From an uncultured Pseudomonadota bacterium (GTDB lineage Bacteria; Oederibacteriota; Muellerivitia; Muellerivitales; Muellerivitaceae), in NCBI GenBank assembly GCA_963836235.1, contig CAWIIP010000002.1:928001-992000 (forward strand): 64,000 nucleotides of DNA, in the 5' to 3' direction. Under the pieces are notes generated by a model. The model was given only the letters and a program-made list of their open reading frames with translations. It made no database searches and was not told the DNA's origin. Positions within the stretch are counted from its first letter, which is position 1. Every line of letters begins with the position of its first letter. A program made the position numbers and the translations under genes. This document shows positions 8,388 through 13,205 of this stretch, piece by piece.

Positions 8388-9475
8388 TTTCTTTTCGCTT
8401 TTCGTGTTTGTTTTTTAGGAGGGCCCAGGAATATCTGGAAAGGATTTTCCCTCAACTTGGTTTGTCCCTCATCGACCCGAATGGTGGAAACCGCCACGGT
8501 AAAAAGAAGGGCGGCGAAGAAAAACAAGACCATGAAAAACAAGGCACGCTTTTCCGAAAGCCGCACCAGCACACCGGCGCAGGCCACGAGCAGGAATGAA
8601 AGGCTCCAAAGCGACCAAACGATAGGCTTCACCGACATGCCCAGGGCCCTCAGCCTCAAGGCCAGGTGGTCGTTGGACCCCCGGAACATGGAACGCCCTT
8701 TCAGGAATCTCAAAAACATCACCAGCGCCGTGTCGTAAAGGGGAATCCCCAAAATGAAAAGCGGTGCGCAAAGGGCGACAACGTTCACTTGGGTATAACC
8801 GTGGCCCATAGCAATGCCCGCCAGGATGAAGCCCAGGAAGAGCGCCCCCGAATCCCCCATATAGATTCGGGCCGGTTGGTAGTTGTAGGGCAGAAACCCC
8901 AGGACACTACCACCCAAGGCCGCCGCCGTCATTGGGACATAGCTTTGGGAGCCCAGGAAGGGGACAAAGACGAACCCCAGGCAGGCGATCACCGCCACCC
9001 CGCCCGCCAGTCCGTCCATGATGTCGATCAAGTTGACCGCATTCGTCACCGCCACCACCCAAAAGACCGTCAGAACCTTGGCCAGCCAGGGGTGACTCGG
9101 AAGAAACTCCAATTGGACTCCGAAAAAGATGAGCAGTGAAGCGGCCAGAATTTGGAATAGGAACTTGAGCGCCGGAGAGAGCGAAAAGAGATCGTCCGTC
9201 AGCCCCAAAATGGCGACCACCGTGCCCCCGGCCAAAAGGGCCAAAACCCGAGGTGAATCGGAAGGCGGAGACAGGATGATGGCCGAGAGAACCCCCAAAA
9301 GAAAGGAAAAGTAGATGGCCAGCCCCCCCATATAAGGAACCGGGGCGGTGTGCTTTTTCAGTTGGCCTTGGGGGCTATCTAAGAAGTGAGACCTTAAGGC
9401 TATTTTCCGGAAGAGGGGGGTCAACCCCAAGGAGAGGACTAAAGTGACGATGAAGATGATCCAGTTGGCGTCCAG
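8384..9475 (-). CDS. MraY/WecA/TagO family undecaprenyl-phosphate alpha-N-acetylglucosaminyl 1-phosphate transferase
   Basis: PYMGG, LTDD, NAVNLIDIMDGL, YMGDSG, DHL motifs; probable CTG start at 9475 behind GGAGG (track start 9430). Confidence 0.9.
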   Translation of the reverse strand: MDANWIIFIVTLVLSLGLTPLFRKIALRSHFLDSPQGQLKKHTAPVPYMGGLAIYFSFLLGVLSAIILSPPSDSPRVLALLAGGTVVAILGLTDDLFSLSPALKFLFQILAASLLIFFGVQLEFLPSHPWLAKVLTVFWVVAVTNAVNLIDIMDGLAGGVAVIACLGFVFVPFLGSQSYVPMTAAALGGSVLGFLPYNYQPARIYMGDSGALFLGFILAGIAMGHGYTQVNVVALCAPLFILGIPLYDTALVMFLRFLKGRSMFRGSNDHLALRLRALGMSVKPIVWSLWSLSFLLVACAGVLVRLSEKRALFFMVLFFFAALLFTVAVSTIRVDEGQTKLRENPFQIFLGPPKKQTRKAKRK

Positions 9476-9580
9476 GGGCGTCCTCCAGGCAGCGGATGGC
9501 TAATGTTTGGCTGTCTTGAGGCACTATAACACAAAGGCAAAGGGTGCCCAATTGGCTTAAAAAACATGGAAAAGGGCAAT

Positions 9581-9610
9581 AAAAAAGCCCCGGTGGGTCG
9601 GACCGAGGCT
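9581..9610 (-). terminator. Rho-independent terminator of the putative sRNA
   Basis: AGCCTCGGT-7nt-ACCGGGGCT stem (one G-U) followed by T-tract on minus strand. Confidence 0.8.
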
Positions 9611-9666
9611 GGGAGGTGAGTGTTGATTTGTTTGAAAGCAAACCAGTTGTCGCTGGCCTACTTGCT
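9581..9666 (-). ncRNA. Putative sigma54-dependent small RNA (~86 nt)
   Basis: Bounded by a -24/-12 promoter and an intrinsic terminator; 5' hairpin plus single-stranded CACUCACCUCCC anti-SD segment; no ORF on this strand. Confidence 0.65.
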
Positions 9667-9676
9667 AACTATATAA

Positions 9677-9692
9677 GGCAATGTCCATGCCA
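9677..9692 (-). promoter_or_regulatory. Sigma54 (-24/-12) promoter
   Basis: Minus strand TGGCATGGACATTGCC = TGGCAYG-N4-TTGC with exact GG-N10-GC spacing. Confidence 0.8.
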
Positions 9693-9763
9693 GTCCTTGT
9701 GCGGTTTTTCATGGCCAAAAAGCCTTATAATTTGAGGTTTTTCAAAAAAACCTAAAAAGTTAA

Positions 9764-9811
9764 GTGTAATTTATATTTACACTCAAAATATATTGTACAT
9801 ATTATTTACAC
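9764..9811. promoter_or_regulatory. Tandem enhancer (UAS) sites for a sigma54 activator
   Basis: GTGTAATTTATATTTACAC (9764-9782) and TTGTACATATTATTTACAC (9793-9811), both TGT-N11-ACA, ~100-145 bp upstream of the predicted TSS. Confidence 0.7.
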
Positions 9812-9944
9812 TTTTTCAAGTTTAATTTTAAACCAAATTCTTTATCTATTTGGCATGCATAAAGCAAAAAGTGTATAGCTTATGGATATTTACTTGTCTC
9901 TAGATTGCACGCCTTACTTCGGACCAAAAGGATAGAATTTCCGC

Positions 9945-10781
9945 ATGGATTATATTTCTTCAATCAATTTTATGCTCATTGTTATTGGTTTGGGTCTTTC
10001 TGCGGTTGGGGGTGGTATGACCTTTCTACCGCAAAATCATTTTGATAAAGGATTTGGAAGAACAATAAGAATAGGTATGGGATGGTTACTTATACTTTGG
10101 GGGTTAAGCCTTTCTGGGTATACGACTTATATTTTAATTCAAGGAAAAAGTACAGAACAAGCAACCATGTGGTTTGGGGGGGCCGCTCATCTAGTCCCAA
10201 AGATTGTTCCAACTCCACGCCCAAAAGCCAGAAAAGAAACGGAAATTAAAAAGCAAAACGAAACCCAAGCTTCTTGTGAAGCTGTTTCAATTTGGTTTAA
10301 TGACTCTCAACCTCAACCAGAATTCAACATTTATCCAGATAGCAAGGATGGTGATACATTACAACCGAAATTAGAACTGAAGTTTTATGTTGATTGCTTC
10401 AATAAAACAAATGAAGAAAGAGATTTAACTTTTTTGCCATACCTTCAAGGAGGTAATCTCCCAGCAAATTGGAAAGTGATTGGTGTTGGGATATATCAAA
10501 TAAGCGGGGCGGAAAAAGATATTCCAGGCCCCAAAATTGTCGTGGCTCCGAAAACACACTTCTTATTCAATGCTCTTGTGGAGATTGGTACGGAAGATAT
10601 GAATACGCCCGCATTTTATGAATCTTTCAAAACGTTAAGTGAAAAAGTAACTTTTACTTTAACCGTTAAAACCGAGGAAGACGAAACTTGTACAACAGCT
10701 CAAACCATTTCTATAAGGGACGGGTTTCGAATAAATTTCGAACATAATCATCAAGACATTACGAAAAATTGGAGTAATTAG
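9945..10781 (+). CDS. Hypothetical AT-rich membrane protein (two N-terminal TM helices plus soluble beta-rich domain)
   Basis: 278-aa ORF with hydrophobic N-terminus; markedly lower GC than flanks; no recognisable family motif. Confidence 0.75.
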   Translation: MDYISSINFMLIVIGLGLSAVGGGMTFLPQNHFDKGFGRTIRIGMGWLLILWGLSLSGYTTYILIQGKSTEQATMWFGGAAHLVPKIVPTPRPKARKETEIKKQNETQASCEAVSIWFNDSQPQPEFNIYPDSKDGDTLQPKLELKFYVDCFNKTNEERDLTFLPYLQGGNLPANWKVIGVGIYQISGAEKDIPGPKIVVAPKTHFLFNALVEIGTEDMNTPAFYESFKTLSEKVTFTLTVKTEEDETCTTAQTISIRDGFRINFEHNHQDITKNWSN

Positions 10782-10863: not shown

Positions 10864-12741
10864 CTACTCCACCCCAATCCCATACTTCCTTATCTTCTGA
10901 TAAAGCGTCGGGCGGCTGATACCCAACCGAGTAGCGGCTTGCTTTTTGTTGAAGTGGGATTCCTGCAGAACCCGAAAGATCAAATCCTTTTCCCCTGATT
11001 CAAGAACGCTGTTCGCCGGAAGCTTTTCCATCGTCTTAGAAGCGGGGTTCTTTGCGCCAGTCAGCTCCTCCGGGAGGTAGGCGGGCTTGATCAGCACGTC
11101 GTCGTTCAAGGTCACGATACGCTCGATGACGTTCTCCAGTTCCCGCACGTTCCCGGGCCAGCGGTGTTGCCGCATGATCGCCAGGGCTTCCTCGGAAATA
11201 CCCTCGAACCTCGTGGGCCGCTTGGCCTTCAAGCGGTCGAGAAAGTATTTCACCAATAGCGGAAGGTCGCCTTCCCTATCCCTGAGCGGCGGCATCTCGA
11301 TGACGATGACGTTCAGCCGGTAAAACAAGTCTTCCCGGAAATGGCCTTCCTTGATGGCCTGCTTCAAATCCCGATTCGTGGCGGCTATGACGCGGATATC
11401 GATCTTGACCGTCCCCGTCCCGCCCACCCGCTCGAATTCCCTTTCCTGGAGCACCCGCAGGAGCTTGACCTGGGTGGAAAGGGAGATTTCGCCGATCTCG
11501 TCCAAGAAAACGCTCCCCTGGTCGGCGGCCTCGAACTTCCCGATCTTTTGCCCAATGGCCCCGGTGAAGGACCCCTTCTCATGCCCAAAAAGCTCGCTTT
11601 CCAGGAGGGATTCACTAAGAGCCGAGCAAGCGATGGGCACGAAGGGCCTATCATGCCGCGCCGATTGCTGGTGGATGGAGCGGGCCACCAGCTCTTTCCC
11701 CGTGCCGTTTTCCCCCAAAATAAGCACGGTCGCGTCGCTGGCGGCCGCCCGTTTGATGAGGTCCTGAATGCGCTGCATGGGCGGGCTGTTGCCGATGAGG
11801 AGGCTTTCTTCCGCCGGGCGGCTTTTTTGCGCAGCGGCCACCGACACCATGGACTTGGAGAGGGCGAAGAGGATGGAGGCGGCGTTTTTGGAGGATTTCA
11901 CGAACTCCTCATAGTCTTCCTTCATGCGCCCGGTCAGCCCTTCGTTAAAATAAACTTGTCCCAGGTTATAGATGGCGTTCACATGGTCGGGATTTACCTT
12001 CAGCACATCTTTGAATTCGGTAATGGCTTTTTCCAGTTCCCCCTTTTTAAAATAACAAATCCCGAGGTCATTCTGGATGTTCAGCCTTTCCTCCCCCGCG
12101 GGTAATATCTTGAGGGCCTTGCGGTAAATCTTGATGGCTTCGTCGTACCGCTCCAAGGCCATCAGGCATTCCCCCAGGCTTCCCAACGCCGGGACGTTGC
12201 GGGGGTTGGAGTCGATGACCGATTGGTATTGCTCCAGGGCCTTTTCCAACTCGCCCCTTTCCTTGAACAGCGCCCCCATGTTCATTCGGCATTGGAAGGA
12301 CAGGCTTTCGGCCGTGTGGAAAAGCCCCAGGTAAAAACTGCCGGGCGTCAGGGGATGGACCAGGTGAAGGGTCTCCATGAAGGAAAACATGGCGTCATTG
12401 ACATGCCCCCTTTTCATGTGGATCAGCCCCATGTTGAAATGGACGTCCAGGAGCGAGGGATGGATTTTCAGGGCCTTTTCGTAATAGTCCAGGGCGGCGA
12501 CAAAATCCTGCAAATGAAAAGCCGCGTGGCCCGCGTCCCGAAGGGCGAAGGCGCTGAAGGGGTTTTTCTTGACCACCGATTTGAACAGCTTGAGGGCCTT
12601 TTCGTACTCGCCCTCCTCGAAGGCGGCCACCCCTTCTTCCGTGGCCTTCTCAATGGGCTCATGGGCGGCCCCACAAACCGGGCAAAAGCGGTGTTCTTCG
12701 TCCAGGGGATTCCCGCATTCGCGGCAGATGATGTCGGCCAT
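10864..12741 (-). CDS. Sigma54-dependent enhancer-binding protein with N-terminal zinc ribbon and TPR repeats
   Basis: CxxC-x10-CxxC, TPRs, GENGTGKE Walker [32 protein letters not shown]-terminal Fis HTH ([11 protein letters not shown]). Confidence 0.95.
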
Positions 12742-13186: not shown

Positions 13187-13205
13187 GTGTAATTTTATTT
13201 TACAC
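13187..13205. promoter_or_regulatory. Third copy of the GTGTAA-N7-TTACAC site (probable autoregulatory operator)
   Basis: GTGTAATTTTATTTTACAC immediately upstream of the 13161/12741 operon. Confidence 0.7.

Follow-up and report, generated by a model that had tools for sequence, protein, structure and literature searches.

What does the consensus σ54 promoter between a presumed σ54 activator gene and a GT4 (WecA/MraY-family) gene drive in an uncultured bacterium, and on which gene would its product act? The locus lies in a stretch of 64,000 nucleotides (nt), hereafter the window, taken from the forward strand of contig CAWIIP010000002.1 (positions 928,001-992,000, assembly GCA_963836235.1). 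It belongs to a 3.97-Mb genome, called G000 below, which is 99.4% complete, and candidate division FCPU426 is the phylum label used throughout. Comparison of the element with its homologues led us to a σ54-dependent, trans-acting small RNA (sRNA) that would be activated by the neighbouring protein and would repress translation of type IV pilin, a reading to which we assign a probability of roughly 0.7.

Anatomy and conservation of the RNA element

The initial annotation of this DNA had described a consensus -24/-12 promoter with a start near 9666, followed by a 5' hairpin, an unpaired stretch and an intrinsic terminator, and these elements are real: each is present on the minus strand of the window where it had been placed, as judged from sequence and fold. 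The -24 GG occupies 9691-9690 and the -12 GC 9679-9678, which predicts a start near 9666. Between the 5' hairpin and the terminator lies the unpaired stretch UUUCAAACAAAUCAACACUCACCUCCC, ending at 9611, and the terminator stem-loop (AGCCUCGGUCCGACCCACCGGGGCU, 9610-9586) contains 9 base pairs (bp), 6 of them G-C, with a T run reaching 9581. A fold of 94 nt gave a minimum free energy (MFE) of -28.1 kcal/mol (z = -2.84), a stability equalled by 3 of 200 shuffled sequences. The claim that the RNA of about 86 nt holds no open reading frame (ORF) also stands, since neither ATG nor GTG occurs within the sRNA sequence, the sole listed ORF that overlaps it (9375-9641, with a TTG start) passes through the terminator, and the linker differs in length among homologues by indels that are not multiples of three.

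A stricter form of the σ54 box, TGGCAYN5TTGC, is found at 23 sites in the 3.97-Mb genome, where composition alone would give about 15. At the sRNA, TGGCA-N7-(T/A)GC is found at the same position in all 31 homologues, approximately 9-12 nt ahead of the model start, and in 30 of the 31 it has the stricter form; the box is more than a chance occurrence. The genome also encodes RpoN, as indicated by a Sigma54_DBD match (E 2.1e-63) in a 510-aa frame.

By BLAST, the element was found once in its own genome, with significant matches in 19 relatives, and a covariance model was built from these 20 sequences. The model recovered the element in its own genome (G000:C2:937579-937667, corresponding to window 9579-9667) and found a single copy in each of 30 of the 31 genomes of the family and 31 of the 32 of the class, where the one genome without a match is 63% complete. 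At the level of the phylum, 36 of 99 genomes gave matches. Twelve weaker matches (5 second matches within the class and 7 in families f8 and f10, from 5 genomes outside the class) were rejected as gene-end terminators that carry neither a σ54 box nor a GACCC loop. Additionally, a degenerate terminator pattern was scanned over all GTDB species representatives and returned 19 loci, every one of them in the same gene neighbourhood; 10 bear the title candidate division FCPU426, and the others are plain or differently labelled metagenome-assembled genomes (MAGs). Together, these scans indicate that the sRNA is a single-copy family confined to one class of an uncultured phylum. In line with the novelty that had been proposed for it, tRNA was the only Rfam match over the whole window at the gathering threshold, and at E<=10 over positions 9300-10000 there were four weak matches, none of them on the RNA body, to which no family, Qrr included, could be matched.

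The structure co-varies among these homologues beside orthologous activators, a check that the initial annotation had proposed. In an alignment of 31 sequences, which was fitted to the covariance model and hence is biased toward the structure, 96.1% of cells are paired compared to 85.9% in shuffles, and double-sided changes occur at 9 of the 14 modelled pairs, a count reached by none of 500 shuffles; controls in which the alignment was slid collapsed. All five modelled pairs of the 5' hairpin show double-sided changes. The terminator stem pairs in 99.3% of cells, has double-sided changes at 4 of its 9 pairs and co-varies even in distant genera, while its loop motif, GACCC, is the same in all 31 copies. 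The comparative evidence supports an independently terminated, previously unannotated and probably σ54-driven sRNA of a new family, although of a kind that is already known.

Complementarity to type IV pilin leaders

Beside the anti-Shine-Dalgarno (anti-SD) stretch of the sRNA lies an A/U-rich sequence, UUUGCUUUCAAAC(G/A)AAUCA, that is complementary to positions +2 to +20 of type IV pilin mRNAs. The unstructured part of the sRNA was scanned for duplexes with 30,856 candidate starts of 3,490 ORFs, for which crude ORF calls were used, and a pilin start, C2:716967(-), ranked third at -25.3 kcal/mol. BLAST of the sRNA in G000 gave a 19-nt match (18/19) at G000:C2:716948-716966, the same pilin site, and similar matches were found in many relatives. 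The gene, 211 kb away from the sRNA, encodes a 151-aa prepilin of the N_methyl family (MIRLKAKGFTLIELMIVVAIIG…) and adjoins a PilC-like T2SSF gene. Its mRNA reads GGGAGG-UUUUU-AUGAUUCGUUUGAAAGCAAA; the SD pairs with CCUCCC of the sRNA, and positions +2 to +20 pair with the main seed, UUUGCUUUCAAACAAAUCA, at 18 of 19 positions. For the pilin adjacent to pilC, the promoter, TTGACA-N17-GATAAAAT, is conserved and of the sigma70 type, and the 5' untranslated region (5'UTR) spans approximately 50-67 nt.

We then co-folded the full RNA with pilin positions -62 to +70 from nine genomes, which yielded the seed contact in 9/9 and the SD contact in 8/9, with 5-7 bp on the SD. The gain in free energy was -15 to -27 kcal/mol in eight of these genomes, compared to means of -6 to -11 kcal/mol with shuffled mRNAs. 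These comparisons support an A/U-rich stretch that would provide specificity on the pilin leader, with the anti-SD on the pilin SD as a second contact.

Among pilin loci L079-L148, a genome may hold as many as 5 pilin-like paralogues, whose 5' ends, from the SD to about codon 40, show conservation of the nucleotide sequence, synonymous sites included. Where paralogues have divergent leaders, the IVVAI residues are the same but are encoded by other codons.

If the complementarity reflects contact between the two RNAs, seed and leader would be expected to change together. Across 29 genomes, each genome's own sRNA was paired column by column with its own pilin-like genes of the class, and 450 of 551 positions were found to pair, a mean of 15.5 out of 19. 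With permuted genome labels, the count was 418 +/- 4.8, with a maximum of 435, and none of 5000 permutations reached 450. Individual columns show how the pairing is kept. At +4, an A:U pair becomes G:C in genus g3 and U:A in G012 (pilin AUGUUUCG, RNA CGAAACA); at +12, G:C is found in 16 genomes and A:U in 11 across five genera; +11 shows a double-sided change in g3; and in g10 there are double-sided changes at +15, +16 and +18 (pilin …AAGACUAAA, RNA UUAGUCA).

As an out-of-sample test, we collected all prepilin-type genes of G011, for which no usable pilin locus had been available beforehand, and of G007 and G004. The divergent seed of G011, CAUCCGAACCA, predicts a pilin start of AUGGUUCGGAUG, and the best prepilin gene of that genome reads GGAGG-uuugaaa-ATGGTTCGGATGAAA… (GGAGG-N7-ATGGTTCGGATG), an 11-bp perfect match that includes three double-sided changes relative to the majority pair. 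At the level of sequence, the G011 pilin leader is correctly predicted from the seed.

A functionless alternative would be a decayed, inverted remnant of the pilin 5' end, with a complementarity that is historical. Up to four sRNA segments are indeed collinear with and antiparallel to the pilin mRNA, as they would be in an antisense copy; however, the segments lie closer together in the RNA (about 5 nt where the mRNA has 28 nt), an enhancer, a σ54 promoter and a terminator are dedicated to the locus in 31 genomes, and the compensatory changes with pilin leaders extend over several genera, unlike what a relic would show. We consider this origin very improbable.

Two of these four segments are loops that might contact the pilin mRNA away from the seed. 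The pentamer GGGUC, the complement of the terminator loop GACCC, is present in 37 of 67 pilin-like 5' regions compared to about 8% expected, clustered between -32 and -55. In roughly 10 of 14 folded 5'UTRs, it occupies the apical loop of a 5'-terminal hairpin with a stem sequence that varies by genus, and 6 genomes lack it in their pilin 5' regions. Pairing between the flanks of GGGUC and the RNA loop scored 174 against 161 +/- 4.7, with 17 of 5000 permutations reaching this value, which lends modest support. The loop of hairpin 1, GCGACAAC, is complementary to GUUGUCGC of pilin (+49 to +56); this site occurs in 28 of 34 pilin-like genes with a complementary loop compared to 18 of 33 with a differing loop, an equivocal outcome. 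The four contacts would be collinear and antiparallel. These counts do no more than suggest the two loop contacts, GACCC:GGGUC and GCGACAAC:GUUGUCGC.

The anti-SD stretch itself was the seed named in the initial annotation. The 16S rRNA of G000 ends in GGATCACCTCCTTTCT, and UCACCUCC of the sRNA is an 8-nt copy of that 3' tail; CCTCC is retained in 27 of 31 copies of the sRNA and TCACCTCC in 21 of 31. The RNA might accordingly be a general anti-SD mimic or a multi-target sRNA, in which UCACCUCC competes for strong SDs or titrates a factor, with pilin as one of many targets or an incidental one. Its identity to the 16S tail, kept in 21/31 copies and longer than the 5-7 bp used on pilin SDs, speaks for such a role, as do the 64 genomic sites with at least 9 nt of complementarity to the anti-SD alone. 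Yet 15 of these 64 sites lie ahead of a plausible start, one is the antisense strand of the sRNA gene itself, and in the best candidate the complementarity of at least 9 nt is kept in just 8 of 29 genomes, whereas the longest, most specific and co-varying complementarity is to the pilin leaders. We regard a general mimic as unlikely. The rejected best candidate is a 417-aa ORF starting MAKEQKQDIVVGLD, which looks FtsA/actin-like by eye. The C-rich stretch is thus present and would contact the pilin SD, but it is not the main specificity determinant, and a regulon defined mainly by GGGAGGUGAGUG-type ribosome-binding sites, as first proposed, is not supported, since its best candidate is not conserved. 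The broader proposal of a new family of trans-acting translational repressors fits the comparative evidence, by which the sRNA most likely represses in trans; its mechanism requires refinement, with specificity coming from the A/U-rich stretch.

In the mechanism that we favour, a Zn-ribbon/TPR enhancer-binding protein would bind tandem GTGTAAA…TTTACAC palindromes and activate the σ54 promoter, and transcription would stop at the strong intrinsic terminator to give an RNA of about 87 nt. The A/U-rich stretch would then pair with +2 to +20 of pilin and thereby cover the start codon together with the first six prepilin leader codons, and CCUCC would pair with the pilin SD. With SD and AUG covered, 30S binding would be blocked and less pilin would be synthesised; in many genomes, the GACCC terminator loop may in addition kiss GGGUC in the apical loop of the pilin 5'UTR. 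Direct observations are the anatomy, conservation and structural co-variation of the sRNA element and its complementarity to the mRNA with compensatory changes; from these we infer transcription of the sRNA, a neighbour acting as its activator, repression as the outcome and a signal sensed through the TPR domain.

Several points weigh against this reading. The ends of the sRNA and its expression are predictions, and repression rather than activation is read solely from the position of the duplex. In the duplex scan, with its crude ORFs, two start regions scored above pilin, and the co-fold of G010 gained -6.5 kcal/mol, no better than shuffled mRNAs. The permutation test ignores phylogeny, related genomes not being independent, and takes the best paralogue per genome, in the controls as well. 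A C:A mismatch is found at +7 in five genomes (G000 and four others, from genera g1, g16, g17 and g5), and pairing at the aligned seed is poor in G025 and G017 (10/19), although G017 has a separate 9-nt match at pilin +21 to +29. Among the three genomes of the out-of-sample test, G011 is the only success, the prepilin search in G007 and G004 (85% and 80% complete) having given no settled outcome. Finally, CUCA is conserved 5' of CCUCC and is not accounted for by the pairing with pilin.

The direction of the effect deserves separate consideration, since the same complementarity could have a positive or non-translational outcome, in which the pilin mRNA is stabilised, its 5'UTR hairpin is remodelled or processing by RNase III is guided. 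The conserved hairpin in the pilin 5'UTR could be engaged by the GACCC loop, and the computed data are silent on direction. Against this stand the duplex on SD and AUG in 8 of 9 co-folds, which is the classical geometry of repression, and the closest functional precedent, the Acinetobacter baumannii sRNA Arp (Acinetobacter repressor of pilin), which represses according to the cited excerpt (PMC12338739). A pairing with pilin that leads to anything other than repression therefore appears to us rather unlikely.

Promoter architecture, neighbouring genes and sister classes

The features of the locus are collected in Table 1.

Table 1. Features of the sRNA locus and its surroundings, in window coordinates
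Feature	Position	Strand	Basis or remark
σ54 -24/-12 promoter TGGCATGGACATTGC	9678..9692	-	sequence read; kept in 31/31 homologues
Small RNA, ~87 nt, ends predicted	9580..9666	-	fold, terminator, covariance-model match
5' hairpin, loop CGACAA (GCGACAAC)	9636..9663	-	fold; co-variation in 31 sequences
Main seed UUUGCUUUCAAACAAAUCA	9624..9642	-	BLAST match, duplex scan, column-wise pairing with pilin mRNA
Anti-SD stretch CUCACCUCCC, containing UCACCUCC	9611..9620	-	identity of UCACCUCC to 16S 3' tail
Intrinsic terminator, loop motif GACCC at 9599-9595	9581..9610	-	stem co-variation; invariant loop
Extended -10 TGTGTTATAGT (TG-TATAGT) of the GT4 (WecA/MraY-family) gene, outside the RNA	9523..9533	-	sequence; conservation
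A/T-tract region (…AAAAACC…ATAAGGCTTTTT)	9716..9753	-	between enhancer and -24 box
Enhancer (upstream activating sequence), two tandem palindromes GTGTAAA-N5-7-TTTACAC	9764..9811	-	sequence read; centred ~100-145 nt upstream of RNA start
Presumed activator gene, 625 aa: zinc-ribbon + TPR + σ54-interaction AAA+ + HTH_8	10864..12741	-	Pfam
Second enhancer palindrome GTGTAAAATAAAATTACAC	13187..13205	-	just upstream of the unk138-activator operon; without σ54 box

In relatives, the activator gene lies directly upstream of the sRNA, and the conserved order on one strand is PNPase, unk138, activator, RNA, GT4, amine oxidase, cNMP-binding protein and TPR protein. The sRNA might thus be a σ54-driven cis-acting leader or attenuator of the GT4-amine oxidase-cNMP-TPR operon: it always lies between activator and GT4 on the same strand, synteny alone cannot decide the matter, and some read-through is possible. 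However, 26 of 30 loci carry, at varying distances beyond the terminator, an extended -10 of the TGTTATAGT type amid sequence that is otherwise not conserved, indicating that the GT4 gene has its own promoter and that the sRNA is not its leader; the TG-TATAGT box that the initial annotation had assigned to the wecA-like gene is among these. The terminator is strong (9 bp, then T6-8), with no alternative anti-terminator pairing in the MFE, centroid or consensus folds, no search having been aimed at such structures. Moreover, the seed co-varies with an unlinked gene. We therefore judge a cis-acting leader improbable and retain the trans-acting sRNA.

Conservation of the GT4 N terminus extends past the listed TTG start at 9430, to about 9475 on the minus strand, in a frame that opens after a TAG at 9502-9500, and the extension contains no ATG, GTG or TTG. 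The conserved sequence GGAGGAC(R)CCC-CTG suggests CUG as the start; G013 has ATG at this place.

The Pfam domains of the presumed activator include Sigma54_activat, AAA_lid_14 and HTH_8, and a comparison with NCBIfam gave generic models of bacterial enhancer-binding proteins only, all of them under cut-offs, and no specific equivalog. At least one match to the enhancer palindrome lies at most 220 nt upstream in 25 of the 31 homologous loci, mostly at -115 to -117 from the RNA start. The full palindrome, GTGTAA-N7-9-TTACAC, has just two copies in the 3.97-Mb genome, one at the sRNA and one at window 13187, between the PNPase terminator and the unk138-activator operon. In 12 longer loci, the palindrome was confined to these two kinds of place, and an operon-upstream site like that of G000 was found in 3. 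The second copy suggests that the activator may regulate its own operon. The architecture is that of a dedicated, enhancer-dependent promoter with possible autoregulation, at which the product of the neighbouring gene would be the protein that binds and activates.

Between enhancer and promoter, a 20-sequence alignment of the A/T tract shows TTTTT as invariant and AAGG as nearly invariant. The tract is probably a bend or a site of the integration host factor (IHF) type, and it looks generic, since comparable T tracts lie 20-30 nt upstream of several other σ54 boxes in G000.

G000 alone has a 278-aa ORF (window 9945-10781, plus strand) between the activator gene and the enhancer, which matches neither Pfam nor NCBIfam. 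In relatives, including G001 of the same genus, the activator stop codon is approximately 80-170 nt from the -24 box, and the ORF looks like a recent insertion that left the enhancer joined to the promoter. In the G020 locus (L033 / L063), a second short match to the last 28 residues of the activator lies between the activator gene and the sRNA, which indicates a local duplication or insertion at the same junction as the extra ORF of G000.

Outside the window, G000:C4:452902 (+) has a good σ54 box, TGGCATAACTGTTGCT, with a short G+C hairpin and a T run beginning about 25 nt further on; no ORF is evident after the box, and this unit may be a second σ54-driven short RNA or an attenuator. Identical σ54 boxes, TGGCATGCCGCTTGCC, are found 4.4 kb apart at G000:C4:294359 (-) and C4:289999 (-), both preceding similar sequence with GACGGCCGTCAT-type palindromes, a duplicated σ54-dependent unit.

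Many other families of the phylum encode full-length orthologues of the activator (38-43% identity). We inspected 16 regions downstream of such orthologues in sister classes, two of them shortened by contig ends, and found a σ54 box in 10, of which 5 carry a related palindrome, ATGTTAAC-N3-GTTAACAC, upstream; palindromes of this type are also present in three regions without a box. In all 10 boxed regions (within loci L162-L175), the box is followed by an SD and then by an ORF of about 61 aa (MTYECVVKKGHTGAGK…GGVKKGR…), identified by ORF call in nine and by reading the sequence in L171. This ORF fills the slot beside the activator that the sRNA fills in its own class. The 61-aa protein belongs to no Pfam family and was not found with a single query in the 32 genomes of the sRNA-bearing class, and the GT4 gene was not seen downstream of the small ORF within these 1-kb loci. 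The output of the module seems to differ between classes. A bolder proposal, which we offer tentatively and regard as doubtful, is that the output was swapped in evolution: the Zn-ribbon/TPR activator, together with a related palindromic enhancer, would drive a 61-aa protein in sister classes and, in the class studied here, an antisense RNA with as many as four collinear contacts on pilin mRNA (the SD, two loop contacts and a duplex of 19 nt over the signal-peptide codons), with pilin leader and sRNA co-evolving and the sRNA carrying an exact copy of the ribosomal anti-SD tail. The seeming exchange of a small protein for an sRNA as the output of one conserved activator is an unusual evolutionary observation.

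No other RNA-based regulatory circuit than that of the pilin-directed sRNA appears to have been put forward so far for candidate division FCPU426, a lineage known from MAGs only; among the matches listed by a full-text search for literature naming FCPU426, there was no sRNA paper. The co-variation of seed and target implies that an sRNA target can be assigned from genomes alone and that the 5' end of an unseen gene can be predicted, as in G011. If the proposed mechanism is true, type IV pilus output, in motility, adhesion or DNA uptake, would be under a σ54/TPR-sensor pathway at the level of translation, and the codons of the prepilin leader would be constrained by an RNA partner.

Comparison with known systems

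In its gene arrangement, the locus resembles Pxr/PxrR, CrcZ/CbrB and NrsZ/NtrC, and by the tests applied it is a member of none of them. The Pxr gene of Myxococcus xanthus lies directly downstream of the gene for the NtrC-like activator PxrR (Nla19), with a predicted σ54 promoter and an intergenic enhancer region, and the likeness extends to an sRNA beside a σ54 activator gene and to a multi-stem-loop architecture, as far as the cited excerpt describes them (PMC5684412); the binding targets of Pxr remain unknown according to an excerpt of another report (PMC11928866). Whereas PxrR is a response regulator, the input domains of the activator here are a Zn-ribbon and TPR, and the sRNAs show no sequence relation by Rfam. 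In Pseudomonas, CrcZ with CbrB (PMC5113210) and NrsZ with NtrC (PMC4253122) are described, in the excerpts cited, as RpoN-dependent sRNAs directly downstream of the gene for their own enhancer-binding protein. CrcZ antagonises Hfq/Crc and does not act by base-pairing in the excerpted account (PMC5113210), while the sRNA here is short and looks like an antisense-type, base-pairing RNA. NrsZ is there described as being processed to shorter forms (PMC4253122).

The Pfam model of Hfq had no match in the 99.4%-complete G000, in which control models matched, and this would fit a long-duplex, chaperone-independent mode of action. Qrr/LuxO of Vibrio, in the excerpts available, likewise comprises a σ54 activator that drives short sRNAs repressing the translation of their targets. 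Qrr RNAs are multi-copy and Hfq-dependent, whereas the sRNA here is single-copy and has no Rfam match to Qrr. OxyS-fhlA is a case of two-site kissing, in which loops of the sRNA contact separated sites of the mRNA, one of them at the ribosome-binding site; in the sRNA described here, the central contact would be a long linear duplex, with loop contacts only suggested.

Arp, the closest precedent in function, comes from an unrelated phylum and shares no Rfam family with this sRNA; the likeness proposed is one of functional analogy only. Unlike Arp, the sRNA has a σ54-type promoter and an adjoining, apparently dedicated activator; it would pair with about 19 nt of coding sequence, compared to 17 codons in Arp, and may add loop-loop contacts to this duplex.

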